A stretch of DNA of 64,000 bases from Pristiophorus japonicus (Eukaryota). Location: positions 145,142,001 through 145,206,000 of the forward strand of contig NC_091984.1 of NCBI RefSeq assembly GCF_044704955.1, given 5' to 3'. The notes beneath the pieces are model-generated. The model did not search any database and was not told the DNA's origin. It worked only from the letters and a program-made list of their open reading frames with translations. Of this stretch, positions 9,500 to 48,946 are shown one piece after another; positions within the stretch are counted from its first letter, which is position 1, and each line of letters begins with the position of its first letter. Position numbers and translations under genes: made by a program.

Positions 9500-9765
9500 A
9501 AGAGCTAGTGTATTATTATATCCCACTCATTTCTGACATGGTTTGATACAGGTTGAACATAACTTCTCTGCTTTTGAATTCTAATCCGTTAGAAATGAAC
9601 TCCATTGTTTTATTTGCACTGTTATGGCCTTATTATCCTCCGTTGCTACTTTTAGTGATTTGTGTATCTGTACTCATAGATCCCTTTGCACCTCGACACC
9701 ATTTAGACTTATTTTCCAAGGGTCGGTAGGGTCCGTATCCCTCCTACCATTTTGCACCACCTCTC
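9500..9765 (-). mobile_element. CR1 LINE fragment
   Basis: Decayed match to the CR1 ORF2 C-terminal region seen at 19016-19300. Confidence 0.55.
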
Positions 9766-9769
9766 AGTA

Positions 9770-10694
9770 ATTCGCTAAGCCTGTGTCAGCTCCGTCTAGT
9801 TTCTGAAGCCTACCCTGCCCCAGTGGATTGCGGGCGTTCCAATCACACTATCATGGGAATAGTAGTGAGGATGCCGGTCATGGATGGGACAGCCCGACCC
9901 TCACTGGCATACAGGGTGGAGAACACTGGGGTCATTCAAGGAGGTGCACATGTTCATTTCACAGCGTTCCCACCTATGACATAAAGTGGGTGCAAGCTAA
10001 GACAGATACTGACCTCTCTGGGTGCCGGAGCCAGGGTGCGCACATAATACTGTGCCCCCAGCACTTGAACGCCTATTCCAAACCACAGTGCGGGTTTAAA
10101 GCTACTGGCACACAACCTATCAACTGTACCATGGAGGTGATGGCACAAGTCCATGTTCCCCCACAGGTAGCATATATAGGGGGTGGGACATACTGTGTTA
10201 CCACGAGTGCACCCCACTACCAGCACGGATAGCACATTTGGTGTCCGGTGAGTGAAAGCATTTTCTGTTTTAAACTCGAGGCAGAAGTTCAAGTGGCTCA
10301 GGAACGGATTGTCCCCATTCCTGAACCCTCCTCTGTTCACCTCACTGTAAGTGACAACATAACAAACCTGCAAGACTGTCGCATACTTTGGTTACGAGAT
10401 TCCCCCCTCTACCCGAACATCTTACTGCCCTACTGAAAGCTGTTCTAGAGTATAGAACATTTCTATACTCCAGAACAAAAAACAGTTGAGATAGGGGGCG
10501 AGATTTCAGAAATCACAGTTCCACCTTGGTGGAATATTTTCAGAAATATAGAGGTCTCAGCCGGGATCAGAATAGCTTCCCACGTTTTAGTTGTCTGCCA
10601 GCTCGCGATTATTCTTTATCTATGGTGTACTACGTGCAGGGTGAGAGGCAGAGGTCATTGGTCCTGGCACCAGAGGGTGCTGGACGAGCCCTAG
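9770..10694 (+). pseudogene. env-like fusion glycoprotein C-terminal half of a long-LTR retroelement, decayed
   Basis: Reading across frameshifts: IMGIVVRMPVMD..YRVENTGVIQGG, Cys-rich DLSGCRSQGAHIILCPQ..CGF..INCTM..TYCVTTS..WCPVSESIFCF, then a helical stretch, PWWN and a TM helix RIASHVLVVCQLAIILYLWC; stop at 10692-10694; followed by a polypurine tract and LTR. Confidence 0.65.
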
Positions 10695-11070
10695 CTGAAC
10701 TTAAGGATTGTATCAGGGAGGGAAACACAAAATATGATAGAACACTGCAGAAGAATCGCAGTCGCCCGGTGAGGTCCGGTTTAGATTCCACCTGCTGTAA
10801 AAAACGCAGAGGACAAGTGTTAAAAAGTTTGTCCTATGTGTATTTTACTGTGTACTTTTTGTGAAACTGGAGTAATGGAGGGGCGTTGGACCCTTTCTAT
10901 GCTGTAATGTGACTTATGACAGAATTTACCTGTAAACAGTAATACATCTCAAAGGGGAATGTACGTTTGGGTTTAGCTAGGTAAATTACAGGGGAAGGTG
11001 GGCTCTCGGGAATCAGGAATTTTGTTCATTTAGGATGACACTCTGGGGCGAAGAGTGGCAAATGGGGGAT

Positions 11071-13191
11071 TGTAAGATTCCAAAATTCATGGAAAGCCCG
11101 CCAGTGTTTGGACTCACTGAAAAGGAAATTAAGCAGAAAGTTTGGGATCCTGAAATGCCCATGGAAGAAATCTACGAGTTTTAACCAAGTTTGGGATTTT
11201 AAAAAGGTGCATGTTGGGTTTGTGAGAAAAGGGCTGCAAGATCAGGGGTGGGTTCAACTTCTGAAAAACCCGTTTGGATATTGGAGCTAATCAAGCTAAT
11301 CAAGCTGTCTGGGGATATTGGAGCTAATCAAGCTGTCTGGGGATATTGGAGCTAATCAAGCTGTCTGGGGATATTGGAGCTAATCAAGCTGTCTGGGGAT
11401 ATTGGAGCTAATCAAGCTGTCTGGGGATATTGGAGCTAATCAAGCTGTCTGGGGATATTGGAGCTAATCAAGCTGTCTGGGGATATTGGAGCTAATCAAG
11501 CTGTCTGGGGATATTGGAGCTAATCAAACTGTCTGGGGATATTGGAGCTAATCAAGCTGTCTGGGGATATTGGAGCGAATCAAACTGTCTGGGGATATTG
11601 GAGCTAATCAAACTGTCTGGGGATATTGGAGCTAATCAAGCTGTCTGGGGATATTGGAGCTAATCAAGCTGTCTGGGGATATTGGAGCTAATCAAGCTGT
11701 CTGGGGATATTGGAGCTAATCAAGCTGTCTGGGGATATTGGAGCTAATCAAACTGTCTGGGGATATTGGAGCTAATCAAATTGTCTGGGGATATTGGAGC
11801 TAATCAAACTGTCTGGGGATATTGGAGCTAATCAAACTGTCTGGGGATATTGGAGCTAATCAAATTGTCTGGGGATGTTGGAGCTAATCAAGCTGTCTGG
11901 GGATATTGGAGCTAATCAAGCTGTCTGGGGATATTGGAGCTAATCAAGCTGTCTGGGGATATTGGAGCTAATCAAATTGTCTGGGGAACTGTTTACTCTC
12001 AAACCTGCCCGCAGAAGACATTTACATTTCAACAATCGACCCAAGGAAGTACAGTTTCAATCCAAGCACAGGACCCATTCGACACATGCATAATGCCAAT
12101 CACCTTTCCGGCCTGCATAGAAAGCTGGGTCCCAGGCAGACAACTCGACACCAGAAACTAGCTTTAACAATTGCGATTCGAAACCCACAGATAATTTTAA
12201 CAATTGACGCATTTTCAATCCAGATACCGGTAACGAGCCCACCAAAATTAAACAAAGAACCAAGGTTGATTTGGCGAGCAGATTAGGGGATCTCACACAG
12301 TATAACTGGGGGCCAGTTTTTATAGTCAGGACTGCACTTTGCTTCTACAGCAGCCTCGTATGCTTCAGAGCTGGCAGACAACAAGATCAGCACACCAGCT
12401 TCGTTAACCTGGTTCTTCAGAACATCAACCAAGACAGGATCGCAAGTGACCAGGACATCAAGCACACCGTGGCAGCGAGAGGCTCATGAAACAACCACCA
12501 AGTTATTACCAGCAACCAAATTGGTAATATTGAGCCACCACGACCAACGATTTCAAAACCGAAGTCACCTCGACGAAAACACGAAGATTTGAAAGCTGTT
12601 TCCACTCTACCAGCTATCCCTGAGCTACCAACGGGTACAACATTACCTAAAAGAACTTTAAAAACTACTGCTGAAGGAAGAAAGTGGGTACTTAGCCCAT
12701 AGATCCAATACACGCCCTACCGCATCAGCGGACACCACCCAACTGTGGAACACGCAGCAAGAAGTCCTCTCCTACGTTCTGGGTAGGGCTAGCAGAATCA
12801 ACAATGCACCCCGAAACGCGACCCATTACCGACTGTCAAGGAAGGGTTGGTGAGCATTGTCCCTGAAGCCCCAGAGCCTAACTTAGTTAGAAAGAGGAAT
12901 TGGGAGGTGGGCGGTATTGACATGCTATGTATTCTCTTGTGTTTTAGTAAAGGATTCCCTATTAGAGTGATAAGTTTTCTCTCATTTAAAATGATAAGTT
13001 TTCTCAGTTTTTAATAAAAGGTGTATTCATTCTTCTTGAATAAAATCCATAACTTCTTTGTACAAAACGGTTGTCTGCTGCACTTTATCACACCCTGATT
13101 AATAAATCCAGGTTCGAGAACCAGGGAGTGGGAGCAACTCACAACCGCTCTGGGTCAGGAAGGAAAACTGACAGACACACCACCCTCAACA
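11071..13191 (+). mobile_element. Long 3' LTR related to the LTRs at 41425 and 49508
   Basis: Starts TGTAAG after gggggat and ends CAACA; shares blocks such as ccagtgtttggactca, catggaagaaa, aagtgggtactt, gaagtcctctcc and ttggtgagcat with the 41.4-kb LTR; AATAAA near 13014 and 13040. Confidence 0.85.
11279..11987. repeat. 28-bp tandem array (ATATTGGAGCTAATCAAGCTGTCTGGGG), about 25 copies, inside the LTR
   Basis: Direct repetition; the related LTRs have a single copy (acattggaactaatcaaattgtctggga, 41758-41785). Confidence 0.95.
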
Positions 13192-24270: not shown

Positions 24271-24871
24271 TGTTAGATCTCTTAATTCCCAATGAAATAC
24301 GAACTCCGACTGTAGTTTTAATGTAACTTTATTCTGGCAGCAGCAACAAGCTTCTGGCTTTAAGCCAGGCCTTTGTCCTTCTGAGACCACATGGCCAAAA
24401 TGGCTGTACTTATACCTGGTTCAATTTACAGAAAAGAACTCACCTTCTTTGACCTTATTGGCTCAATTGATAGTCTTTTAACCTTTAATTGGCTCACTAC
24501 CCAAGCTCATAAAATATCAAGTTGATTGATGACTTAATGCAACATGCTGAGTAGCACGTAGCAGCTTTGACTTGGGGTCTGTGAATTTTCACAAAACTGC
24601 AGCCAGGCTGCAGAGCTTGAATACTCTATCAATCCCCACTTTGATTCTTTCACAAACGGAATCATAAAACATCAGCTATCACTGGTTAAACATTCTACAA
24701 AATAATGTCATAAATGTTAATAGAGTATCCTTCTAAAATTTGTTGATATGTTTCGCCACATGTCCGGACTAGTAGCTTCCATACAAATTTATACCAACCC
24801 GAGTACCATCGTGGCCACAATGGAAGTCTGGTTTTAGTAGGTTAATTAACCTTATTCCAATTTAATCTAAA

Positions 24872-25852
24872 TCAATATCTTAATTCAACCAGTAAACAAC
24901 CTTCCCTTAAGCATAACATATCCCTGTGCCACGTACAGACGGTGGGACCTGCAAGGTGTCTCACATGTGGGACAGCAGCTACAGTCACTTGTTTGCAACA
25001 ACATTTAATCAACATAAACAAAAATATAAAAGTAAAATAATTACAACGACTAGAATTAAACCTTCCACCAATGAAGTTCCTATTGAACCTAGCCATTCAG
25101 TGGCTCCACTCCACAAAGTGAATGATGGGGGTTGCTTAAGTTTTTCTACCTCCTTTTGGATATGCTCCGCTAAGTGGGTAATTTCTTCGAAGCTATCAGG
25201 GATATACGTGCAACACTCAGTTCCGAGTAGGGCGCAAGTACCTCCCTTTTCAGCCAGGATGTAGTCAAGGGCCAGTCTATTCTGTAGGGCTACTGTGCGG
25301 ATTGCGATCATTTCTGCATTGATTTTAACTAAGGCCACTGAGGTATCATTGGCTACCCAGTTCCACAACGGTTGCCATGTTAATGGATTCCCTTGCCAGT
25401 TTGGCGGTCCCATACCTGGGGATCAGAATGGCAAAGAACTTCTCTGTTTCTGTGATAGCTCTCTTAGGATGGAGTAAATGTTCCGACAGTGACTCTATAT
25501 GATACATATATAGCACAATGTAGGCTAAATAGCAGGATCCCGTCCAATTCTGGGGCAGCCAAGGGTAGGCCTTGTGGCCACACACCCAATAGGTGCCATT
25601 ATAGGCAATGAAGGTTAGCTGTTTCTTTGTCAGCAACACTCCGGGACCTGTCCAGGCTTTTCCATCTGTTTTATTCAGAATCCCCGTTACGTTAAGAATT
25701 CCCACATCGGTCCAGTTTGGACGGTTCCGTGGCTTGATTATATTATAATTCCGGGAGCAGTTACTATTTCCCTTTGATGCAGAGGGTCGGCTAGTAAGAA
25801 GTAGGCCTATGCCTAGACTGCCTACAATCAGTAATACAGTAAATTTATACAT
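24872..25852 (-). pseudogene. env: ERV env, gamma-type TM, SU very short
   Basis: Signal peptide MYKFTVLLIVGSLGIGLLL; GTYWVCG..WTGSCYL; HPKR/AITE cleavage site; immunosuppressive domain LQNRLALDYILAEKGGTCALLGTECC; TM helix. Confidence 0.9.
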
Positions 25853-25876
25853 TTTGGCAAAAAGTAATTGTCCTTA

Positions 25877-28800
25877 CTAGATTTCAGCTTCAGTTACAGG
25901 TGCTCGTTTAACGTGTGAAGCGTGGATCCAGGCTTTCTTTCCTTGGACTTTAACAGCTGCCTGGGTGGTCAATAACACTTGATAAGGACCCTCCCATTTG
26001 GCACCCAAAGGTTCTTGTTGCAACTTTTTCACATACACCCAGACTCCCGGGATGATGTCATGTCCTCCTTCAGGTGGATTACCCCAAGCTGCCGATACCT
26101 GTCGGGAAACAGAACTAGTAGCATTGGTTAAGTTCTGACAGTATGATAACAAAGTGTCACTCATTAAGTGAACATCAGCTTTCCTTAAATCACTAGATCC
26201 TGGCAGCGACATGGGTCTTCCTGTTATAATTTCAAATGGGCTTAGACCTGTAGTTCTGTTCGGGGTTGCCCTAATGCTACATAGCACTATTGGTAGTGCC
26301 TGGGGCCATGGTGTTACTTCTTGGTGATATTTGGCAAGCCGTTGTTTCAGAGTTCGATTCATTTGCTCTACTTGTCCTGATGATTGTGGATGATAAGGAC
26401 AGTGTAAATCCTACGTAATGTTCAGTAACCTACAGACTTCTTGGCAGACAGCACCTGTGAAGTGTGTTCCCTGATCTGAGTCAAGGCTAATTGGGACTCC
26501 CCATCGGGGAATGTAATCCTTACATAAGACCTTTGCAATGTGATTGCCTGTGGCTCTTTTAGTTGGGACAGCTTCTACCCATCTAGAGAATCTGTCGACC
26601 ATGACAAGAATGTTAGTGTATCCTTGGAATGAAGGAAGAGGTATATAATCAACCTGCAGATGCTGGAATGGTCTGACAGGGGCAGGGAGCCTCAGTTGGG
26701 GCATTACCGTGATGGGTCCAGAATTATTTTTCTGGCACACCACACAGCGGTCTACTACCAGCTGGGCATGTTTTTTAAATCCCCGACCCCACCAGCTTTT
26801 CTGGAACCATGCCGTCATCTGTTGTGAGGCCAAGTGTCCCCACGAGTGGATCTGTTGGGCTAAAAAAGGCATAAGCGCTTGTGGCGCGACTGGCTTATCG
26901 GTAACTCTTTGTCTTCAGACACCATCTTCATATAGCTTAATTCCTGCCTCAATCCATGTCCATTTTTCCTCTCGGGAGCGCTCGCCTTGCATTGTTTGAA
27001 GGTCTCATGTCAGAGTCCTGAGTGCTTTCAATCTGCACTCCTGTGTTGGTTCTTCTGGAGGAACGTCCTGTGAGGCAGCATCTTTAGCTGCCTGGTCGGC
27101 TAGGGCATTTCCCTGAGCTTCTGTGGTATTTTCCTTGGTATGGGCTTTACACTTCAGGATGGACACTTCCTGAGGTAATTGTATGGCCTCTAGTAAGTCT
27201 CGGACTTCTTTTCCATTTCGGATAGGTGTACCAGCAGCAGTGAGGAATCCCCTTTTCCGCCACAGCAGACCAAAGTCGTGGGCGACTCCAAAAGCATAAC
27301 GTGAATCTGTGTAGACATTAGCTGTCTGTCCTTCTGCTATTCAACATGCTTCTGACAGGGCCAGTAACTCGGCCTGTTGTGCTGACATTCCTGAGGATAA
27401 ACATCCTTTTGCCAGTACCTCATATAAGGTTGTAACTGCCCATCCTGCTTTTCTGGTACCATTGTCAACAAAGGAGGAACCATCTGTAAACAAGATGAGG
27501 TCTGGGTTGTGCAGAGGGTCCTCTGCTGCTAAGGCTGCTTCTTCTGTTTCTTTTAAAATCTCCACGCAGTCATGCTCTTCACATTCCCCCCCCTCTTGCT
27601 CCCTCGATTCTGACATCGGGAGCATAGTTGTGGGATTAACTGGGCTGGCCCGGATGATACGGAGATTAGGAGCTTCCAAAACTGCAGTCCAGCGGGTCCA
27701 TCTAGCTGCCGTCACCTGAGACATTCTATTCATAGACAGCAAAGCATGTATGGTGTGGGGACACTTGACAATCAGCTTTTGGTCGAGAACTAGACCCGCA
27801 ATGATCATTACCGCTCGATATGTAGCTTCCATAGCCCTTAGGCAACTTCCCCATCCGAGGGCTACCGCATCCATTTTTGCCGAATAATAGCCAATAGGTC
27901 TTTGCCGATCCCCATGTTCTTGTGTCAGTATAGCTGTCATAGATCCTTCTTTGTCATGGACAAACAGGGTAAATGGCTTATCACTGTCGGGGATTCCCAG
28001 AGCCGTTGCCGAACACAAAGCCTTTTTCAAACTCAGGAAGGCCTCTTGTTGTTCCTTAATGAGGGTGATGGCTTCTTTAGAAACACCTTTCTCCCTTAAG
28101 ATATCATTCAATGGCTGAGCAAGCTGTGTGAAGGAGTCAATCCAATTTCTGTTAAAGTTACACAATCCCAAAAAAGACCTTAGTTGCTGAATAGTGGTGG
28201 GTTTTTTAGCAGCCTGATTGGCTGCAGTTATATCCTGGGTAAGTTCTCTCTTTCCTTGTGAAATCTTTTGTCCCAGGTATACAACCTCTTCTTGGGATAT
28301 TTGTGCTTTGTCGATGCTGGCTTTATGTCCTTTCAGCCAAAGGTGGTCCAGCAAAGCTCGTAAATCTTGTTCATGTTGTTCTTCCGTGTTTGAAGCTAGC
28401 AGGATATTGTCTACATATTGGATGACTGTGGATGACAGGGGAGGTAATTCTCGCAAATGGCTTTGTAAAGCCATGTGAAATACCGTAGGGCTGTTGTGGA
28501 AACCCTGCGGTAACCGGGTCCAAGTATACTGTTGTCCTTGGACCGTGAAAGCAAACCAGAGGCACCGACCAAAATCCGTTGGCCATATCTATAACTGAGA
28601 AATATTTATGTTCCGGTTTGAGGGCATTAAAAATGGTGGAGGGATCTGCGACCAAAGGAGCTTTTTGATCAATACACTGGTTAGCTTTCCTATAATCGAC
28701 AGTCAAACGCCAAGTCTCATTAGATTTCTGTACCGGCCACATGGGGCTATTGGAGGAGCTATGCATTTTAATAAGCACCCCTTGTTTCTCCAATTGCTGA

Positions 28801-29342
28801 ATAACAGGTAAGATTCCCGTGATGGCAGTTGGACTGATGGGATACTGTTTAGTGCATGGAGGCTTGGTCCTGGTAAATGACACAGGCTCCATCTGGAGTT
28901 GGCCACAATCGTTCTTATCTTTAGCCCATATCGGGTGTTCCTTCAATTCTTCTTTCTTCAAAGTTCTAATTGACCATGTCACCCGACCATCCTCGAAATG
29001 CAACGATGAATCTACTTGGATTAGAACGTCCATTCCCAAAAGGGGCTGATCTACTGGGCCTATCCAGACCGGCCTGGTTAGTTCATGTGGACCCAGCCCT
29101 ATAAGTACCGGTATTGTCCTTTTAATTTCCATTTTATGGCTCCCAACTCCTTAGACTGTACGTGCCCTACCATCCAACGACAAAAAGTCTCCATATTGTA
29201 GGGGTAAGCATGTTAATTCCGCCCCTGTGTCTAAAAGACAGTCCACATCCTTATCGCCCACCCTCACAGTTATATATAGCCCATCTCCCCTTTGTTGAAT
29301 TAGTGCGAGGAGGTGGACCAGGGTGGGCTCTAATCGTTTTTT
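25877..29342 (-). pseudogene. pol: ERV pro-pol (protease, RT, tether, RNase H, integrase)
   Basis: LLDTGA; IDMANGFWSVP; LPQGFHNSP; QYVDN (YVDD mutated); FTDGSS...SAQQAEL; HLQVDY, DSDQGTHFT; WEGPYQVLL. Confidence 0.93.
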
Positions 29343-30899
29343 GCTATCCCAAGTAACTCCTTCTGTTGTTGTATTGTCAGTCGCTTAAATGCTTCTATGA
29401 GGTCGGTATTTTGTGACAAGCCTGGTTTGTTGGCTGAATTGTATCCCTGGCTGTGTCCTCTTTCCCGGCCGCGACCTTGCTATTTTGCCCTGCACGTCTT
29501 GGCCCAGTGACCTTCTTTCCCACAATAATGACATTTTCCCGGTAATTTTCCTTATAAATATTTATCGGAATCCTGTGATTTCCATCCCATAGCCTGTACA
29601 GCTCGGACTTTAGCTCCCATATCCCGATCTAATTGGTTACATCGATCCACCAATGCTGCAAAGGTAGTTCCTCTACCTTCCCAGTCCGGTAACACTACCT
29701 TAAGCATTTTGGACAGTTCTGGCTTTTAACCTGCCACGAAAGCTGCTTTCAGGGGTCCAAACACTTGTTCATCCATTTCCTCATCCATATTATTCATACC
29801 CGAATGCCGAATGTTCTAGCCACGTGCATCTAAACCGCTCGGCAAACTCCAGGACCTCCTCTGTTCCTTTCTGTTGGCAGGCTGCAATTTTTTCCCAGTC
29901 TGTCTTAGCTGGACTGAAGGCTTGCAGCCAGTGTTTAATCGCCTCCCACCCTGTGTCTAATTCTTGCTCATCCTGCCCCAAAGCTTCTTCTATCTTGTCG
30001 TGCAATTTTCTTCCCTGTGTTTTTGGCACCATTATGGTCAAAATTTGCACTCCGTCCCAGGGATGACGTTGATATATATTTCTTAAGCGGTCCAATTGGT
30101 CCCACGTTTTTACTCCCCCTTTCTTTGGATTGGGCAATTCCTTGGACCTTTTATCAATTTTCTCTGGGTCTGCCGGATCATGAACTAAATATTCTGCATA
30201 CCCACTTTTCTTCGTTTTTTTGGTTCCGCCCTCATCCACAGTCTCTTCTGATTTGACTACAACTCGTCTTTTTTTAAATGGGGCAAAGCGCACCCCTAAT
30301 TCTTCATCCTCCGACCCTGTATCTTCGGAGGATTCAGAATTCGTATCAATTCCTTGGTCGTGTCTTCGGGTTTGCTCTTTTAATTTATCCAAACATGGGT
30401 ACCCTGGGAATTGACCGATACATTTTCCTTTTCCTATTACTGTCTCTTGACCGAATGATTTTTTCCATTCTTTAATTTCACCTTTAAGATCTTTAACTTC
30501 CGCTTCCGATTTTTCAAGTTCAAGTCTTGTCTGTCGCAGCTGTGCACAAACAGCTTGCAATTGGTCCTTTGTACTGGTCAGTTCATCATCATGTTGGGAA
30601 CGCATTATAATTTCATTCCGCTTTCGGATCTGTCCCATAACGGCTAGGGACCATCTAGTTTGCTCTTTATTTTTCATACGGGTCGTTTTCCCCCAGACCC
30701 TTTTAATCTCGTCCAAGGACCATTGTCCTTTGGAGGTACCGTATTTTTGTTCGATCTTAATATGGGTTTTAGATAAGTTGAATTGTTGCTCTATGTATTC
30801 TTTCAACTGTTGGAGGATTTCATCTTTCGAAACCTCAGATGGTGCCTGCCCGCCTTTAACAGTTGTAGGCAATTCTTTGCTCTTATCTCCTGCTGCCAT
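29330..30899 (-). pseudogene. gag: ERV gag
   Basis: 369-aa ORF with an MHR-like QQKGTEEVLEFAERF; zinc knuckle CHYCGKEGHWAKTC near 29490-29535; ends GCA AAA AAC GAT TAG. Confidence 0.88.
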
Positions 30900-32444
30900 A
30901 ATACTGATTTCTTTACTGGGGTCTCGAGTCGTAGGCTTTCCAGCCGATGTGTGGGTCGGTGATTAATTAACTAACACAACGCCGAAGTTAGATGTCTATG
31001 GGACCTCGAGCCGACTACCAACCGGAGGGTTCACAAACCGGAGGCTTTTGGAATCGCGTCGAAGGAGAGGCAAATTTAGACTTTTGACCGAGGACTTTTA
31101 TAAAGAGGCATCCTTACCTCAGTATGTCGGTCCGATGTCCAAAATTCAGTTTCTTCCCTCAGCGATCGTGTTCGTGATGCCAGAATTGTTTGATCTCTTA
31201 TTTCCCAATGAAATACGAACTCCGGTTGTCGTTTTAATGTAACTTTATTCTGGCACCAGCAACAAGCTTCTAGCCAAAATGGCTGTACTTATACCTGGTT
31301 CAATTTACAGAAAAAAACTCGCCTTCTTTGACCTTATTGGCTCAATTGATAGTCTTTTAACCTTTAATTGGCTCGCTACCCAAGGTCCTAAAATGTCAAG
31401 TTGATTGATGACTTAATGCAACATGCTGAGTTGCACGTAACAGCTTTGACTTGGGGTCTGTGAATTTTCACAAAACTGCAGTCAGGCTGCAGAGCTTGAA
31501 TTCTCTATCAGTTACCCTCACAGCTCGAAGGCTGCTTGCTGTGTCTTCGGCTGCCATTGAGTCACTGAGGCCGCCCCTGTCTCCAACATGGAAGGAAGGC
31601 CTGCCTGAAGCACCGCAGCTCGAAGGCTGCTGCTGCTTCACACAGGTGGGAATATTCAATATTTTGTATTTGCTTTGTTTATAATTTTTTATTCGGGCTG
31701 GCTCTTTATTTGTATAAGTAAGACTGTTGAATGCTTGTAGAATTTAATTACTTCCCTCCTTCCCCCCACCATTCCCTAAGCCTGATTTTTCACCTACGCC
31801 TGATTTCTAAAGTGTAGATAAGGTTGTTCTGAGCAGACAAAAATCTACACTTGCTCCATTCTAAGTTAGTTTGGAGTAAGTTTTCACTGCCTAAACTTTC
31901 AAAACAGGCGTAAGTGGCCACACATGCCCCCTTTTGGAAAAAAAAATCTGTTCCAAAATGAAACTGTTCCAACTCACTGGAACTGGAGCAAATTAAATGC
32001 CGAGAATTGCAATTTCTAAGATACTCCATTCTAAACCAGTTGCTCCAAAAAAAAGGAGCAACTCGAGTGGAAAGTTGACCCCTCAGTCTTTGAGTATATT
32101 CAAGACGGAGATCGATAGATTTTTCGATATTAAGAGAATCGAGGGATATGGGGATAGTGCAGGAAAGTGGAGTTGAGGTAGAAGATCAGCCATGATCTCA
32201 TTGAATGGCGGAGCAGGCTCGAGGGGCCGAATGGCCTACACCGGCTCGGGAGGGGCAGAGGGGATGGGAGGGGGAAGGAGGGGCTTGTGAGGTAGGGGGG
32301 CAGGGAGGTGGGGATGGAGTGGGGGCTGAGTTGGGATCGGGAGGCTGAGGGATGTGGTGTGAGGAGGGCGGGAGTGAGGGAGGGAGGCGGGGGAGTGGCT
32401 CGAGGTGGGGGTGGGGAGAATGGCTCGGTGGGGCGAGGGTAGAG

Positions 32445-32940: not shown

Positions 32941-35592
32941 AATGTAACGCCCCTATTTAAAAAAGGAGGGAGACAGAAAGCAGGAAACGATAGACCAGTT
33001 AGCCTAACATCTGTGGTTGGGAAAATGCTGGAGCCCATTATTAAGGAAGCAGTAGCAGGACATTTGGAAAAGCGTAGTTCAATCAAGCAGAGTCAGCACG
33101 GTTTTATGAAAGGGAAATCATGTTTGACAAATTTGCTGGAATTCTTTGAGGCTGTAACGAGCAGGGTGGATAAAGGGGAACCAGTGGATGTGGTGTATTT
33201 GGATTTCCAGAAGGCATTCGATACGGTGCCACATAAAAGGCACAAGATAAAAGTTCATGGAGTTGGGGGTAATATATTAGCATGGATAGAGAATTGGCTA
33301 ACTAACAGAAAACAGGGAGTTGGGATAAATGGGTCATTTTCCCATTGGAAACGGTAACTAGTGGAGTGCCGCATGGATCAGTGCTGGGCCTCATCGATTT
33401 ACAATCGACATTAATGACTTAGATGAAGGTGCCGAGTGTAATGTAGCCAAGTTTGCTGATGATACAAAGAAGGACGTTGAGCTATCCAACAAACACTATC
33501 ACACATTACACCAAACAAATGAAAAAGTAAGGGAGGAAATTGAGAAAGTGATAGCCCTTCCAAAATGTGATTTGGGATTCAATATTCAGATTCTCCCCTG
33601 GGTTCGAATTGTGTCTCATGCATTAGCCATTGTATAGTTGGTTATAGTGGTGTAACTATTTATTTTATCCTGTAAGTTAAAAGTGAATACAAAGAAAAGG
33701 AATCTTGAAGGGTTGTTAAGATGAACCAAAGCCAAAGTGTTTGGATATAAAACTGAAGTCAGATCAAGGCCGAATATTTTTGTTATAAAAGTGTTGGTTT
33801 GTCGGGAAAAAGTACTGCTTTTTTGATGTAAAAAAATAATTTTTGACTGAGACTGCAATACACCCAAAAAGAGCTCATGAAAAAAGAAGAATTCCACAAA
33901 TAATGTCTCTAGTTTTAAATGTACGAAACATTAAAGGAGGGAGTGTAAGATGACGAATCTTCAGAAAGCACAGAAGGAGACGATGAACTAAAGATTAATA
34001 CTAGCTTTTGGAATTTAATACAAGCTTTTGGAATGAAGCTGGATAATTAAGGACATTCTTGGTCAGGAACCAAAACTGACTTCATGCATAACAAGAATGG
34101 AGTTGTTACGTGAGGCCCTGAACTTGATTGACCAGGGTGGGGAAAACAAGCTCACTGGAGACACCAAACCTGTAAAAAGACTGGACAACAAAGGAACCAC
34201 ACTAGGTACACATTTTTTGAGACGAGGTGTTAAGATGAGAAATCAACTTGAGCCTTGCAGACTCAGTGTGCAACTGGGAAAACAGATGTGTCCATTATTG
34301 CAGTCAATCACCCAAGGGGACCACAATCAAATGTATCTATGTAAGCACTTTATCAGAAACTGCAGTGGCAGGACATCAGTCATAACCTGGATATAAATAT
34401 GCGAGCTAGAAGTAGCTCTGCAGAATACGGATGAAGGAAAGAAACAGACGGAAGAAGAAGCACACGTGTACAGATGGACACAGGTCGAAAGAATGAACAG
34501 ACAAACGGACGGAAGGATGTGGTGTAAACGGAGGGAACAGCACTGCAGAGAATGACCAGAAGCACAACCAACCGGGCACAGAACCAATGACCACAAACTT
34601 ACAATAGATACAGCCAGGGAGGGTGATTGTATGTCTTCAGTCAATTTCTAAGAATCAGAGTAGATTGAAAAACAATCACCCTATAATACAAAGATGGGTG
34701 GGAAAGCAAATTGTGAGGAGGACACAAATAGTTTGTAAAGGGATATAGACCAGCTAAGTGAATGGGCAAAAATTTGGCAGATAGAGTATAATGTGGGAAA
34801 ATGTGAGGCTTTGCACTTTGGCAGAAAGAATAGAAAAGAAAATTCATTTTCAAATGGAGAAAGATTGCAACCTGCTGCAGTACAGAGGGACCTTGTGCAT
34901 GAAACACAAAAAGTTAGTATGTGGGTAAAGCAATAATCAGGAAGGCAAATTGTATGTTGGCCTTTATTGCAAGGGGGATAGAGTATAAAAGCAGAGAAAT
35001 CCTGCTACAACTGTACAGGGTATTGGTGAGGCCACACCTGGAGTACTGCGTACAGTTTTGGTCACCATACTTAAGAAAGGATAGACCTGCATTGGAGGCA
35101 GTTCAGAGAAGGTTCACTAGGTTGATTCTGGAGATGAGGGGGTTGACTTATGAGGATAGGTTGAGTAGGTTAGGCCGATAATCATTGGAGTACAGAAGAA
35201 TGAGAGGTGATTTTATCGAAACATATCAGATAATGAAGGGGCGACAAGGTGGATGCAGTGAGGATATTTCCACTCAGAAGGGAAACTAGTACTAGGGGTC
35301 ATAGTCTCAGAATAAAGGGCCGTCCATTTAAAACTCAGTTGAGGAGGAATTTCTTCTCTCAGAGGCTTGTAAATCTGTGGAATTCTCTGCCCCAGAGAGC
35401 TGTGGAGGCTGGGTGATTGAATATATTTAAGGTCGAGATAAATTTTTGAGTGATAAGGAAATAAAGGGTTATGGGGAGCGGGCAGGGAAGTGGAGCTGAG
35501 TCCATGATCAGATCAGCCATGATCTTATTAAATCACGGAGCAGGCTCGAGGGGCCAGGTGGCCTACTCCTGCTCCAATTTCTTATGTTCTTA
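32941..35592 (+). mobile_element. CR1 LINE RT to 3' tail, split by a 1.2-kb insertion
   Basis: SQHGFMKGKSCLTNL; FADDTK|MGGK rejoins across 33470/34695; LYRVLVRPHLEYCVQFWSP; cttatgttct tail. Confidence 0.92.
33471..34685 (+). mobile_element. Fragment of a third long-LTR retroelement (env C-terminus, polypurine tract, partial LTR)
   Basis: KHYHTLHQ..EEIEKV..P..NIQILPWVRIVSHALAIV*LVIVV*LFILSC aligns with the env end at 10455-10640; aaaggagggag-TGTAAG at 33944; flanked by ATACAAAGA duplication. Confidence 0.65.
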
Positions 35593-37274: not shown

Positions 37275-37600
37275 CTACGCACATTCTGCTCTCCTGATGC
37301 CCTTGCTGAGGGGAGAGGAGAGACTCTCGTGGGTGAGGCTGCAGGAGAAGCTGGCGTTGGACTCCCAGTCGGAGCCAGAGAGGGTCAGCAGGCTGCTGAC
37401 ACTGTAGGTGTTGTCCGAAGCTCGCAGGTAGTCGCTGGTCTGGACCCCGGCTGAAATGGTCGCTCCGTCCTTCTTCCACTCCACCTCCACCGCATCGGGG
37501 TAGAAGTGATCGGCGAGGCACCAGGGTGGCAGTGCCCTTGGTCGTGACCTCCTCCGGGAGGGGGGCAGCAGGGTCAGTGTGTGTGGTGTCTTCCCTCGGC
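37275..37600 (-). CDS. IGKC: Immunoglobulin light chain constant exon, shark kappa (NS4/type III); two compensating deletions, so possibly a pseudogene or assembly error
   Basis: Acceptor tccctttcAG at 37601-37602; TLTLLPPS / PEEVTTKGTATLV / CLADHFYPDAVEVEWKKDGATISAGVQTSDYLRASDNTYSVSSLLTLSGSDWESNASFSCSLTHESLSSPLSKGIRRAECA*; C1-set Cys/Trp and terminal Cys; resembles shark kappa C as I recall it. Confidence 0.92.
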
Positions 37601-38019
37601 CTGAAAGGGAGGAGAAGGATGTTTAATAGGTGTATATTAGTGTCTGTGTGTGTGTGTGTCACTGTGGGTGTTTCCGTGAGAGTGCGCTTAAGTGCGTGTG
37701 CGAGTGCATGTTAGTGGGTGGGGGGGGGGGGGGGGTATGGGTGTGTGGGTCGGGGAGGTGGGGTGTGGTTGTTGGGGGATGGGGTGGGGGTAGGTGGGGT
37801 GGGTGCAGACGGGCGTCTCTGTGTGGGTCTGTGTCACTGTGGGTGTTTCAGTGTGGGGATAATTCACATCTGATAACAGAGAGTTGAGTTAATGAACTCC
37901 TGGCTGGCGATTAACCATTAGAGGCGAGCAACACTAATTCTTAATCTTCTTTGCCTCGTTTGGTAAGTTTAATATAAATATAAATCCGTTCGATGTTAAG
38001 GTGATCACAAAAAAAAATT

Positions 38020-41222: not shown

Positions 41223-43011
41223 GAAATCTCTGTGCAGAGCAAAGAGCCTGAGCACAGTCAGAGAACTGCGATGGAATAAGTCACTGTATTCCTGTAGAAC
41301 TGAGGTTACACAGTAGAATTTTAGAAGCAAATTATATCAGGTGATCTTAGGAGAATATAAATTGTGTCTATTTATTACGGGGGTGGGGGTGTTACCATGG
41401 ATACAGAAGTATAGTGGGAAATAATGTAGAATTTACCAACATCTCGCAAAATCCAGGTACCTTTCCCTGCAGAGGAGAAGAATCCCTTTCTGGACTTTTA
41501 AAATGAAAGGAAAACTTTGGGACACAAATGACTTTTAAAGGGGCAGACAAGGCCTGCAGGGGATAAAAGTGGGTGCATTCATGGAGACCCCCAACCCCCC
41601 GCAGTGTTTGGACTCATATGAAAGGGAATTTAATTTGGAACGATCTACCAGAAAGTTTGAAATCCTAAAGTGCACATGGAAGAAACTACGAACTTTAATC
41701 GAATTTGGGATTTTTAAAAGGTGTATGTTGGGTCTGCAAGAAAAGGGGCCAGTTTGGACATTGGAACTAATCAAATTGTCTGGGAACTGTATACCCTTGA
41801 AACTTGCCCCTTGAAAACATTAGCATTTAAACAATGCCACATACATATTCCAACACCAATTCAACAGGCATAGAAATATCTGGCTCAGGCCAGACTAGCA
41901 CAATGGAGAGCTCATCAACTTCGAAAAGCCTATTAACGCCAGATTAAAATCACTTAATCAAGTTTCAGTTAGCTGGGCTAGATTTGATGGGAGATAACGG
42001 AGTCTTTTTTTGTGGGTATATCTATTCCCAGTTTTACCAAGGAACAGACTCGAACAGCAGAACACAGACTCAAACACAGACAGACACAAGCAGCCGGAAG
42101 TGGGGAGTGAAGAAATGGAATAGTGAAGGAAACTACCAGAAATCATCAAGGACCGACCGAGCACGAGGCCCATGAAATGGAAGGTTGTCAGCAACCAAAT
42201 TGACAACCCGGGCCACCACAACCAGCGAAACGACCAACCAAAACCAACTCAGCAAAAACCGAAGAATCGACATTTATTTCCACTCTACAATCTACTTCGG
42301 AATGACCAACGGGTGAGAAATTACCAAAAGGGACTAACTAAACTATTCCTAACCAAAGAAAGTGGGTACTTACCCCATACATCCAAAACGCAACTTACCG
42401 CATCAACGGACGCACCCCAACCGAAGACTACGCAGTCCGAAGTCCTCTCCTCCGACCGGGGTACGGCTCACCTAGAAGGCCAAGTGCAGCGAACCCCAAA
42501 ACCGCGATTCACTGGCAACTGTCTAAAGAGATTGGTGAGCATGGCCCCTGAACCCACAGAGCTATAACTTAGTAGTTAGGGGAATTGGGGGAGGGAGGCT
42601 GGGATAACTTGTGTAAATGTATCTGCATTCGCCTCTTTACCCCATTTAGAGTTTAAGCTGTATTCTTTTCCGCACAGACTATAATTGGACAGTTTATTCA
42701 ATTTGTTGTACCCCTCAGTGTGTATTAGTCTGTGTGAGTTATTAAAGGGTTGCCTTTTACTTCTTTTTAAACACAATAAAGCCATACCTGCTTCCTATCT
42801 TGAAACCGATTGTCTGTCCAAGTCTGTCACAGTCCCTTCATAATTCCAGTGTCTAGAACCAAGGGTGTGGGAGCGATTCGGAACCGTTCATATAAGGTCA
42901 GAAGGGAAAGCTGACCCCCTGCAAACCACCCCTTACATAATGGCGACCTCGATGGGGCACTGGTACAAGGGACATGATAAGAGAGAGACTGGTTTCAGGA
43001 AACGAAGCAAA

Positions 43012-44772
43012 ATGGAAGAGGGGATTTCCTCGTATGTGTTTAAGAGGGTAAATGTGGCTAAGGAGTGGGTACTCGATCTATTGTATGCTGAGCATCCAGA
43101 AGATGCTGCAGCTCAATGGACCGAGAGCAAGGACCATAAAAGGTCGAAAGAGAAGGCCATTTGGCTAATTTGCCTTCAGCAACAGATCCGGCTTCTAGAT
43201 GAGGAGAATGAGAAATTAAAGGGAGTACTGAAACAGGCAGAAGAGAGGTCCAGCGCAAGGGCCACAGTTGGGGAAAGGCTGTGGACAGAGGTGGGACAGT
43301 TAAAGGAAAGTAGAGACCTCACTAAAGAAAGGCACAAAACCCAACTGGACCTTTTACAGTGTCAGATTATTGAAGCCAAGAATAGCGAACTGGCATTGCG
43401 GGAAGAGAATTCCTGCCTCGCCAAGCAAGTTAAAGAGTACGGGGAGAGGGTGAGAGACATTCAGGTAGCCTATAAGGTAGCCAGTGCCAGGGAATTTGAG
43501 GCAGGAGACCACGGCCCCTGCCAGCAGCAGATCCAAAGCTTGAACCTTGCTCTATCCCGGGCTAAATGCATGGTGTGCCTGATAAACCCGGGTTTAGCCC
43601 AGGAACACCTGGTTGGGCAAGGAGAAACCCCTCAGTCACTGCCTGCAGCTCCCAGGAATGGCCCTGGGCAGCAGGGGTGTCAGCCAGAGTGCGGGGCAGG
43701 CAAGGATTGCAAACTACCAACACCAGCAGCCCCGAGTTTTAACTCGGCTTGGCAGCAGGGGGAAGAGGGCGAGCCAATACAAGAAGGGCCGGAACCAGGG
43801 CCAATGCACCCGGTCCGGCAGCAGAAGTTTGGCCCGCCTGATGCCAATGGGGCAGCAGGACCCCTAGAAAGCAACTTCGTAGTCCCCCACGACATCCAAA
43901 AACTGAGGGCTATGATAGGCCACCTAAGTAAGCTCACCCAACAGGGGGATCCCTCGGTACACTTCCTGGAAGTGGAACACACAGGGAATATTAACGGGTG
44001 CGATGATTCAGAGCAGGCTAAGTTGTTGCTCTTCTCACTAGACACCAAGCTGTGCCATTCCCTCTCTGCAGACAGAAGAAAGGGGCGAAACACGTACGCT
44101 ACAGTTAAGGAGGAGCTTCTAGAGGCCATGGGTATGAACGACGGGAATCCTTTCTCCCGATTGGAGAAAACAGTGCAGCTCTATGGGGAGACTCCACAGG
44201 CTTTCGCCGACAGGTTGTTGCCGGTCTACGAAAGGGCCTGTAGTGGGGTTCTTGACCGGGCCCACCTGAACCCTAACGAGCTGGCTCACTGGCTCCGCAG
44301 CCTGGTGGCAAACAGCTTACCTGGAGTAAAGGCAAAAGCCTAGGTCTGGTTCGATCCAAGAGATCCCAGAACCACCGAGGAGACAGTGGTCAGGCAGTTG
44401 ATCCTGGCTTACCGGAACAGTAGAGGGACAGAGGAGCCCTCCTCTAAAGGGAGGGTCCATGAGATTAAACCCAGCCAAGGCAAGAGAGAGTGGCATCAGG
44501 AAGGTGGGAACCCTCCCCACAAAGGGGGCGAGTGTTTTGGGTGTGGGAAAAGTGGGCACTGGAGGAAGGATTGTAGGAACCCCTGGAAAGGGACTAAGGG
44601 AAAGGCCACTCCAGCTCCAGCCCGTAAGGCCGGGGCAGGAACACCCGACACATATGAGACACTCGTAGCCACCCTACAGACACTCATAAACAGACAGGGA
44701 GCAGTAGCTATCGCAACTGGTCCAGCAGACGGTACGGTAAAACCCTCTTCTCCAACCCACCCAGATGCATGA
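43012..44772 (+). pseudogene. gag: gag (coiled-coil N-terminus, CCHC knuckle), one internal TAG
   Basis: ORFs 42865-44343 and 44386-44772 are in the same frame; CFGCGKSGHWRKDC. Confidence 0.88.
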
Positions 44773-47700
44773 CTAAGGCCAGTGCAGCCTGTGTACCTGT
44801 GTTCCCTAGAGTACGATGCCTGGAAGAGACCGTGCGTTACGATGGAGGTGGAGAAAGTGAAAGGGACCTACCTGCTAGATACCAGTGCTTCCAGCACCCT
44901 TGTATATGCAGATAACCCAGCTACCTCACCTCTATCGAACGGGGTCCCGTACAGTCTAGTGGGGTTCACAGGCAATGAGCAAACTGGTTCGTTTTCCATC
45001 CTGCTCACCATTCAGTTAGGGACACTCAAAACCAAATGGAAGTGTGTCCTGATGAAATGGCAGCACAAGGGAAAAGGGATCCTGGGAGCTGATTTTATCA
45101 TTGGCCACCAGATCCTAGTGGATCTCAGGAACCACTGTCTATGGGGAGCCATAGTGACTGACAGAGAAGGTGAGGTGGCGGTGATCCCAGAAAAAGGGGC
45201 CAAGGGAACATTGTGTACCGTGAAGCCAAAGGAGGGTTATGACTTGGAATTACTGGTCAGTAACACCCCAGTGGAGTACCAGGCATATGTACGGGCACAA
45301 CTTGCAGCATTTGCCACCCACAAACATGACTGTGGTAGGGTAACGGGGGTGGAAGTTAGTATAGTAGGGGACCCCATTACCCGACCACAAAAGCAATATA
45401 AATTCCCCAGGGAGGCAGAGGCAGACCTGACAACGGCGCTGGGATCACTGGGAGAGCAAGGGGTGTTAAAACCGATAGCAACCCATGTGAACTCTCTACT
45501 GTGGCCGGTTAAGAAACCGGACAACTCGTGGAGGGCCACCGTGGACTATCGAGTACTAAATAAGAATATCCCTGCCTGTGCACCCACTGTAGCAGCCGTA
45601 GCGGATCTCATAGGGAGTATTCCAGCATCTGCGACCACTTTCACAGTGCTGGACATTTCAAATGGGTTCTGGTCCATTCCTTTAAAACGGGAGGACCAGT
45701 ACAAGTTCGCCTTTACCTTTAAGGGCCAACAATACACGTGGAACTGTCTTCCCCAAGGCTTCCACAACAGCCCCAGCATTTTTCACCAATGCATGGCGAA
45801 CTGTTTAAAGGGCTTTAGCAGACCCCAGCAGTTGGTGCAGTATGTGGATGACCTGCTCCTGTTCACCGATCAGGGGGAGGAGCATGGTCCACTGCTGGCT
45901 GAGCTGCTGGAGCTGCTAAAAGAAGAAGGGTTTAAAGTAAACCCCAACAAGGCACAGATCGGTCAGAAGGAAGTCAAATTCCTGGGGCTGACTGTGCGCG
46001 CTGGGGAAAGGGCCATAGACAAGGCTAGAAGGGAGGCAGTACAGGAGTTACCAGCCCCCAACACAGTGACAGGGGTAAGGTCCTTTCTCGGACTCACCGG
46101 GTACTGAAGAGACTTCATTGAGGATTATGCAGCCACCGCAGCCCCTCTGCTCAGGCTCCTACACAAGGGTGCAGAGTGGGACTGGGATGAGGGTTGCGAG
46201 GCAGCATTTAATCAGCTCAAGAAGGACTTGCAGACCGCGCCAGCCTTAGGAGCGATAGATGTAGGAAAGGAGTTTTTCCTGGAGGTGGCAGCCAGCGGGG
46301 ACAGTTTGAGCTCAGTGCTGCTTCAAGAGCGGCATGGCCAGCTGAAACCAGTGGTTTACTCCTCCAGGATCCTCACAGATGTGGAGAAGGGGTACTCCAA
46401 CTGTGAGAGACAACTCCTAGCCACACATTGGGCAGTGAAAAGATCCTTGATCTTCACGGGAGGGTCTCCTCTAACACTCCTAACCCACCACACACCTACT
46501 CAGATGCTCCTAGATGGGAGGATTAAGGATGGGACGGTGAGCAGTGCCAGCATTGCTCGCTGGACCCTGCTCCTCTCCCAGATGGACCTCAGAGTAGAAG
46601 GCCTCCGTGAGCCAAGGCTCGCAGCCAACCTAATCGACCCAGGGAAAGCCCACAGGTGCTCCATAGAAGGGGTATGGGAGGTGAGCATTGGCCTTCAGGC
46701 GGGGTTACGCCCTGCAGGCCGGGACATCGACATGGACGGGTCCAGCAAAGTATCTGCTGGCGAACGACTCACTGGGTGCGGAGTCTATGACCCAAGGACA
46801 GGTATTGCCCTGGCAATCAAGCTCCCCAGCACCATGAGCGCCCAGCATGCTGAACTGTCCGCCGTAATGTACGTCGTGACCCACCCCGAGGAATTCCCTA
46901 CCTCGTACACGATTTGCTCGGACAGTATGTTCACCTGCAATTCATGTACGGAGTACCTGGCTATCTGGTCCCGTCGCGGATACACGTCCGCTGATGGGAG
47001 ACCCCTGGCAATCAAGCCCCTGCTGGAGAAAATCATGACAGCGGTGGGGGAAGAGGGAAAGGTCTACATACATAAGGTGAAGGCCCATTCAAAAACCGAA
47101 CCCCGTGCAGAGGGAAACCAACAGGCTGACAAACTGGCCAAAGAAGGTGCCCGCACGGGAAAGTTCTGGGACCCCTATGACACCGGCCGCATAGCAGCGG
47201 TCAAGAATAAGAACAGGGCAGCAGAGAGTACAGGGGATAGCCTTGGCCCCGGACTTAAAAACAGTTCAGGCACAGGACCCGGTCTGAAAGCTGTCCTGAA
47301 TGCGCTAGCTAGAGGAGAGAGAGTAGAAGGTCCGTACGGCACAGCAGCCATTAGTTAAGGAAGGCATGCTGTTTAAAGAGGGACAATGGGTCGTGCCACA
47401 GCAGCACCAGAGGGAATTCCTAAAACTGGCCCATGAGGGTCCAGGAGCGGGACACCCCGGGCCTGAGACCACCTGGCAACGTGTGGAACAGGCAGGATGG
47501 TGGCTGGGACTCAGGGAGGATGTCCGCGAGTTCTGTGCGAACTGCCTGGTGTGTGCTGCGAACAACCCTGACCCCCAGAAAAGGAAGGTGTCCCTAGGAC
47601 ACGTCAGGAGGGTAGAGGGACCATGGCAGTCAATCCAAATTGACTGCATCGGGCCCCTACCCACTACCCAGGGAGGCTACAAATACTGCCTAGTCCTGGT

Positions 47701-48946
47701 GGACGTGTTCTCAAAATGGGTTGAAGCCTTCCCCTGCTGAACAGCCACCGCACTAGGGACAGCTAAGATTCTAGTGAGGGAAGTGTTCTCCCGGTGGGAA
47801 CTCCCACAGTATGTGGAGTCGGACCAGGGGAGCCATTTCACCGGGCAGGTAATGCAGGCAACCCTTGAGGTGCTCGGCATTGACGGGAAATGGCACGTTG
47901 CCCACAATCCACAGTCATCCGGTATTGTGGAACGTTTAAACCGCACCATTAAAGAAAGGCTGCGGAAGGAAACGGGAGACTCACCCCAAAAGTGAGTAGA
48001 GGTCTTACCGTTGGTCCTAATGGGGAGCCGAGCCAGCCAGTCAAAGAGCACGGGGTATTCCCCATACGAGCTCATGACTGGCTCGATCATGCTGACCCCC
48101 ACCCATGTCCTAGCCCCGGTGCTCACAGAAAGTCAGCTCAGAGAGGTGAACCGGGACCGGTTTGTCAGGAACCTGTTTGAACACCTCAAATAGATTCACT
48201 GGCAGGCTGCTAGTAACATGGGCAGACAGCATCAGAGTAACCGATTGCTGCTAGAACCCAGCAAACACCACGAATGGGAGATAGGGGACCAGGTCATGGT
48301 GAGGAACTATGCTCGGGTCGGGGTTTTTGAAACATTATATATAGGGCCATACAGCATTGTGGACAAGGCAAGCCCGATGGTCTATGCCATAAAGCTGCCC
48401 CGCCGTACTAAGTGGTTCCACATCAACCAGTGCAAGCTGTACAACCCAGGGTCAGCCAACCACAGAGGACAGCCGGGAGGGATGAACCATCCTCAGGACA
48501 GGGACCCTCCGTTGGCCGCCCCCGACAGTGGAGGGCCCACAGGGAATGTGGCAGGCTCAGAAACCGTGCCTATAGGGGCGGTGAATTGCAGTACTGGAGG
48601 GGCTATCCCACCCATCGTTTGGGATTCGGACGCACCCTCAGTAACCCAAGCCCTGAGAAGGACACTCCATACACCACGGCCAAAGATACCGTGGTCACCG
48701 GCAACTGAGCCTCAGCGATTCTACCCTCGGAGAAGGGCAGCCCGACAGGAAAAACCGAAGGTCAGAAGTACAGAGGCCGCTCAGAGTCGGGACCACCAGC
48801 CAGCCGCCTCCAGCGGTGAGGGTCTCATAGGAGCAGTAGCAATGAGCTTTCCCAGAGACAAGGGTTTCCAGCTCACCGGCTGCGGGGAAACCCTAGCACC
48901 CAGGCGGCTATCAGGTCGCACAAGGCATGGGCCTGACAGGGACTAA
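44773..48946 (+). pseudogene. pol: pol: protease, RT, degenerate RNase H/tether, second RNase H, integrase
   Basis: LLDTSAS; LDISNGFWSIP; LPQGFHNSP; YVDD; KPVVYSSRIL..YSNCERQLLA; DGSS..SAQHAEL..SDS..KVKAH..GNQQAD; [28 protein letters not shown]. Confidence 0.93.

Follow-up and report, generated by a model that had tools for sequence, protein, structure and literature searches.

The DNA examined here, positions 9,770 to 13,191 of a 64,000-nucleotide stretch of the Pristiophorus japonicus genome that was analyzed as a whole (the window), is very probably the dead 3' fragment of a multi-copy endogenous retrovirus (ERV) that likely belongs to the snakehead retrovirus (SnRV) group (clade Huo / class III) and whose envelope protein is predicted to resemble the fusion (F) proteins of paramyxoviruses and pneumoviruses (class Ib). 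The features of the fragment, and those of a related provirus further downstream, are listed in window coordinates.

9537 to 9765, reverse strand: LINE-like reverse-transcriptase fragment that adjoins the env relic and cuts it short (tblastx match to fragments of the same kind elsewhere in the window, E 2.7e-10)
9766 to 10694, forward strand: relic of a predicted F-type env, with Cys-rich β region, second heptad helix, PWWN, transmembrane (TM) helix, and short tail; 86–98% identical to 39 other scored places
10572 to 10628, forward strand: predicted TM helix (hydropathy scan, 19-mer with mean Kyte-Doolittle value of 2.1; helix 483–523 in the model of a related copy)
10925 to 11070, forward strand: pre-LTR segment and polypurine tract (PPT; 11060–11070), the segment aligning to 49342–49516
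11071 to 13191, forward strand: 3' LTR of the env-bearing subfamily (2.1 kb; TG...CA), enlarged by a tandem array
11294 to 11987, forward strand: tandem array inside the LTR, 28 bp × 24.8 copies
41425 to 51038, forward strand: complete env-less sister provirus, with 5' LTR 41425–42937, primer site 42941–42958, and 3' LTR 49508–51038
48943 to 49136, forward strand: segment sharing homology with the sequence that immediately precedes env in env-bearing copies (scores of 59–111 against shuffle maxima of 34–50 in all three copies tested)

The relic (9766–10694, forward strand) preserves, in broken form, about 310 codons from the 3' end of an env gene, in which 13 cysteines were read across two frames (2 + 11). 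Its PWWN motif lies at 10524–10535 and is PWWD in most other copies of the env family. The gene is interrupted near 9975 by a frameshift, at 10230 by a stop, and at 10376–10456 by a cluster of small indels and frameshifts; searched with the env-family profile, it yields four matching frame pieces with E-values from 3.5e-32 to 1e-11. A sequence-only reading of this DNA had proposed a decayed env open reading frame with a Cys-rich ectodomain, PWWN, and TM helix, all of which were confirmed by frame reading, hydropathy, and the family profile. The ectodomain and helical stalk that it described stand in part: a decayed env is present, but only its C-terminal portion, without signal peptide, furin site, fusion peptide, or first heptad helix. 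The match to other env copies starts at 9766, the relic being joined at ~9765 to the reverse-strand LINE-like fragment, which is presumably of CR1 type. The missing 5' part was found neither in the 64-kb window nor in the 20 kb upstream of it, and a Pfam search of the relic returned no match. A motif scan agreed that CX6CC and LxNRxxLD (ISD/CKS-17) are absent from the relic, unlike the env at 25 kb, which contains both; the two motifs are also absent, by reading, from a longer copy of the env. The relic is dead and unable to make a working protein. Domestication was considered for it and ruled out because it has no signal peptide and contains several frameshifts.

Downstream of the relic, 10925–11079 aligned to 49342–49516 of the env-less provirus with a score of 94 against a shuffle maximum of 37, whereas 10690–10900 aligned to the env-less element no better than shuffled sequence (scores of 30 and 37; shuffle maxima of 31 and 38). 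The LTR that follows is 82–87% identical to LTRs of env-bearing proviruses and matches those at 41–51 kb in patches only, at ~70% (70–83% per patch). The copy number of its tandem array differs among duplicated loci. The earlier claim of homology between the segment from the env to the LTR and 49390–51038 is upheld for the pre-PPT segment and the LTR patches and fails for 10690–10900. Placing both elements in one LTR family was correct as to homology and overstated as to closeness, given ~70% patches here versus 95% between the two LTRs of the provirus itself.

When the genome was searched with the env relic, the best 40 of 4,396 candidates were scored, and all 40 places match at 86–100%. Three of the scored copies have the window's flanks in common and are segmental duplicates. 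We examined 10-kb flanks for 20 of the remaining 36 copies and found family LTR, gag, or pol upstream of env in every one (20/20). Reverse transcriptase (RT), RNase H, and integrase lie directly upstream of env in 7/20, which links this env to a pol, and LTR-gag-pol-env is visible within the examined stretch in 4/20. The proposed genome check for a pol linked to this env thus had a positive outcome, with a gag-pol related to that of the provirus at 41–51 kb. The full-length layout is LTR, primer site, gag, pro/RT/tether/RNase H/integrase, env, PPT, and LTR, with gag and pol in one frame and stops between them. The full-length env encodes a signal peptide, an R-Q-R-R site, a long helix, the Cys-rich β region, a second helix, and a TM segment; the RQRR cleavage site is present in 16 of the 20 env copies, and the segment C-terminal to it is polar for a fusion peptide. 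Among eight env-bearing proviruses, LTR-LTR distances range from 0.043 to 0.124, and an exact 4-bp target-site duplication was found in three. Six shark genera, along with one skate and a pair of frogs, have homologues of the env, and these are also the hosts of the nearest Pol proteins.

Several variants were seen among the 20 examined copies. Six (L021, L022, L025, L026, L029, and L030) form a pol-less gag+env subfamily with a common deletion junction running from protease to the integrase tail and, in the five measured, LTR divergence of 0.04–0.08. A short env form, in which the N-terminal surface part was lost by internal deletion, is found in 7/20 (L021, L022, L024, L025, L029, L030, and L033), and a long form, with that part whole or partial, in another 7/20 (L026, L031, L032, L034, L036, L037, and L039). 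The N-terminal part of the long form gave an Ig-like signal, a hint only (Pfam Ig_3, E 0.039, in one of eight proteins scanned), and SnRV Env has a Cys-Trp-Cys pattern that looks similar to it by eye. A distant relative of the env, 32% identical, lies at L022:775–1263 (as oriented, opposite strand) and represents a further F-type family in the genome. Long uninterrupted F-type env genes are annotated in bamboo shark and frog (P0057 and P0067).

The polymerase of the env-bearing family groups with that of SnRV. Identity of its RT is 46% with SnRV Pol, 51–54% with frog and coelacanth Pol, and 32–35% with three natural loki-type RTs that were selected by motif and whose loci are too short to hold an env. 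By eye, its LPQGF and QYVDDLL motifs are those of the SnRV row, and the loki rows have PFGY and IYVDDIL. An RT tree was computed from RT alone (28 rows and 249 columns: 21 of 43 Pol hits, three env-bearing copies, three loki-type sequences, and the window), and it places the family with SnRV and the frog and coelacanth Pols at 86/87, inside the retroviruses, whose clade has support of 84/73. The loki-type rows stand apart at 100/99, and the only foamy-like row, which is not a true foamy virus, is far from the family. A shark+loki clade was rejected by the AU test (p-AU 0.030). The primer site of env-bearing copies is identical to that of SnRV at 16/18 bases, and we take this site to correspond to tRNA-Arg. 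The dual RNase H is formed by a tether (PF17919/PF17917) followed by PF00075 (E 7e-20); to our knowledge, a tether with a second RNase H is common to all retroviruses. The best PDB matches of the RT are foamy virus enzymes, SnRV being without a structure. SnRV-like ERVs are known from the elephant shark, according to the accessible portions of four reports (PMC4422223, PMC4977317, PMC6001957, and PMC12193657).

For the envelope, a profile was built from 27 homologues and searched against 177,635 PDB sequences. Its best match was parainfluenza F (E 0.0068), in a collinear alignment that matches the furin site, cysteines, and second helix, and one of the 27 family members matched Baculo_F (E 0.0011). 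Pfam PF00523 was matched in no env search, the longer copy giving chance matches only, and single-sequence PDB searches returned nothing for the env and likewise nothing for SnRV Env. The AlphaFold model of one natural env copy was poor (pLDDT 61, pTM 0.29). When this whole model was submitted to Foldseek, 12 matches were obtained at E ≤ 0.001 (best 3.6e-5), and the 11 listed were all F proteins of measles virus, hMPV, or RSV or foamy virus Env. For a domain model of the β region (pLDDT 79, pTM 0.49), the top 13 of 13 Foldseek rows were F or foamy Env, none at E ≤ 0.001, and a Foldseek-free (VIA) search ranked foamy Env first of 48,161 chains (Z 5.4, rmsd 16). These structural matches are weak, with TM-scores of 0.1–0.26, rmsd of 14–33 Å, and VIA Z values of at most 6.5–6.9 across the env searches, which is under the tool's trust level. 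The VIA wide search returned coiled coils only for the whole model and, for the last domain, scored Ig/FN3 sandwiches nearly as high; in a search of BFVD, the eight best rows were chuvirus/lispivirus-type and other glycoproteins, with F proteins from rank 12. Each of these tests is weak and they converge, so that the envelope is likely of class Ib as that class is used in the part of PMC11468914 available to us, with the fold itself a prediction. The fusion-protein comparison called for earlier accordingly came out in favor of an F-type env, by the profile match to parainfluenza F and the Foldseek matches to F and foamy Env, with PF00523 unmatched and TM-scores below 0.3.

An alternative, which we regard as unlikely, is that the family is a recombinant: a pol of the SnRV group would have gained its F-type env at a late stage, the donor being a lokiretrovirus, a foamy virus, or a negative-strand virus, and such an envelope would then not be ancestral in the group. 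Exchange of env is frequent among retroviruses, the best sequence match is to a paramyxovirus F, and the family copies are mosaics, all of which are consistent with such a capture. The distribution of env homologues argues against it, as the six shark genera, the skate, and the two frogs are the same hosts that carry the nearest Pol proteins. In addition, 198 columns of the env profile, starting at the furin site, align with SnRV Env at an hhalign probability of 76% and an E-value of 2.4e-5, versus a probability of 0.5% for a control env; in an hmmsearch with the profile SnRV Env took the top rank, but with an E-value of 0.29. Finally, no loki Env was seen among 32 env hits (names checked for eight).

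It is very improbable that the protein is a generic class I fusion protein that resembles F only in its helix-β-helix order and cysteine richness; the low TM and Z scores, the coiled coils that fill the unbiased whole-model search, the near-equal Ig/FN3 scores for the last domain, and the other glycoproteins atop the BFVD search would fit such a protein, but class Ib proteins come first, and align collinearly, in the profile search, in two Foldseek runs, and in the VIA wide search with the helix-poor domain. Returning to the predicted F-type envelope, its relationship to the provirus at 41–51 kb has to be considered.

That provirus contains gag and pro-RT-tether-RNase H-integrase, with stops and frameshifts, and its own two LTRs are 95% identical (K2P 0.034). 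At the DNA level it is 78–82% identical to seven env-bearing copies in pol, 70–74% in gag, and 71–80% in the LTR over parts only, and the primer site of its env-less subfamily differs from that of the env-bearing copies. The integrase-to-LTR junction was found whole, at 95–100%, in all of the best 40 scored places, many of them on other contigs. The env profile matched 0/20 env-less loci, which were taken from these best 40 so that an env-bearing member could be missed, versus 20/20 controls. Homology between env-less and env-bearing copies ends ~30 nt before the env ATG and resumes from the pre-PPT segment, from which we infer that env was lost by deletion. The provirus represents a complete, separately amplified sister subfamily that likely lost its env. 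The relic is not, as had been suggested, its missing env, since the provirus has both LTRs of its own, is 18–30% diverged, and belongs to a subfamily without env at any of the 20 loci; nor does the window hold complementary halves of one virus, as the env family comes with a gag-pol and a primer site of its own.

We consider it highly doubtful that both elements are the gag-pol and env halves of a shark lokiretrovirus. An F-type env, a dual RNase H, and related LTRs would be as in lokiretroviruses, the C-terminal half of the env looks by eye like published Loki Env rows, and the nearest Pol matches are labelled 'NYNRIN-like', where the consulted text of PMC7947760 reports the Loki integrase as close to CGIN1. 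Against this, RT identities, motifs, the tree, and the AU test all place the family with SnRV-clade retroviruses, the exact loki RT motif has 0 matches in this genome (a weak test), and 28 kb separate the relic from the downstream provirus, which has both its own LTRs and a different primer site. Lokiretroviruses, a lineage sister to other retroviruses, are defined by RT phylogeny and, in the part of Wang and Han (PMC7947760) consulted, have an RNase H that groups with foamy viruses and were found in 0/6 cartilaginous fish. As judged from the sequences compared, the env family resembles lokiretroviruses in its envelope type without being a lokiretrovirus.

In the history that we propose for the SnRV-group family, it would have entered the germ line through infection. 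From what is known of F proteins, its Env precursor would be cut by furin and trimerize, membrane fusion would come from two helices zipping into a six-helix bundle, and the N-terminal part with the weak Ig-like signal would have bound a receptor. Defective sub-lineages would then have spread inside the genome: gag+env copies with pol deleted, which would depend on polymerase supplied in trans; copies whose env has an internal deletion; and the env-less subfamily, in which a deletion starting just before the ATG would have been followed by copying as an intracellular retrotransposon. Retrotransposition in cis and complementation in trans, the mechanisms behind the env-less and pol-less spread envisaged here, are described in the available portion of PMC10435555. 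The window fragment would have had its 5' end cut off and would later have been duplicated along with the surrounding gene cluster.

Other elements were noted in the window. At 33467–33640 on the forward strand (profile E 9e-9), the second helix and TM remain as the tail of another F-type env, a more distant one; a purine tract and a stretch resembling an LTR come after it, at ~33935–34685, and the whole sits in a LINE fragment. At 24271–31510 on the reverse strand is an epsilon-like provirus with a gamma-type env (ISD + CX6CC), the RT of which groups with fish epsilon-like rows. An immunoglobulin constant-domain-like exon was recognized by reading at 37275–37622 on the reverse strand. On contig C8, between 143 and 148 Mb, the relic recurs with its flanks at three places and the env-less provirus at about nine, which suggests a duplicated Ig gene cluster.

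The family joins an orthoretrovirus-type polymerase to a predicted F-type envelope, and in the literature examined, as far as its text was accessible, a pairing of F-type Env with retroviral pol has been described for lokiretroviruses and foamy viruses only. We found no statement of an F-type Env in SnRV-clade retroviruses in the accessible open literature, subscription papers and Repbase being outside our scope; the portions consulted of PMC9040795, PMC12440569, PMC11089739, PMC13709493, 10.1101/2023.10.26.564294, 10.1101/2024.03.25.586437, and 10.1101/2024.03.17.585361 contain none, and paper supplements could list shark SnRV-like env genes. We put forward, tentatively and as somewhat less than an even prospect, that all SnRV-clade orthoretroviruses, among them SnRV itself, normally have an F-type (class Ib) Env. 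As foamy viruses and lokiretroviruses carry it too, this type would then be the ancestral retroviral envelope, the gamma/beta SU-TM type being a later replacement. This order of events is scenario 3 of Wang and Han, in the part of PMC7947760 seen. It would be directly testable in SnRV, which grows in culture. An F-type Env, if it holds for SnRV and also for the related elements of sharks and frogs, would bear on whether retroviruses acquired env one time or two and on which type is the older. The genome, for its part, likely records the loss of env and then the separate spread of an env-less daughter lineage.

Among known systems, the SnRV clade (including CmiERV lineage I of the elephant shark) is alike in RT motifs, tree position, primer site, and dual RNase H, and in an Env that has a basic cleavage site but lacks ISD and CX6CC, SnRV Env aligning weakly to the family. 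The family differs from SnRV in an RT that is only 46% identical, an LTR of ~1.5 kb, an env of ~700 versus 1134 codons, and, on an unsystematic look, no 3'ORF after env; the consulted portions of PMC4422223, PMC6001957, and PMC12193657 do not attribute an F-like Env to the clade. Lokiretroviruses, as described in the available text of PMC7947760, share gag-pol-env between LTRs, a tether with RNase H, and an Env with signal peptide, RXKR-type site (here RQRR), coiled coil, TM, and weak F similarity, but the family's RT falls outside their clade (32–35% identity, other motifs, AU p=0.03) and PF00523 is undetected in it. Foamy Env (Fernandez et al., PMC11468914, as far as accessible) and paramyxovirus/pneumovirus F, both class Ib, are the best structural matches of the family Env, for which the same order of cleavage site, helix, β domains, helix, and TM is predicted (TM-scores < 0.3); unlike foamy viruses, the family has an ordinary short signal peptide, gag-pol in one run, and an RT that is not foamy-like in the tree. 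The stable, many-copy deletion derivatives recall other env-less and non-autonomous ERVs (accessible parts of PMC10435555; gag-only BHIKHARI, 10.1101/2024.03.25.586437), from which this case differs in that env-less, pol-less, and short-env derivatives occur together with the parental layout in one shark genome.
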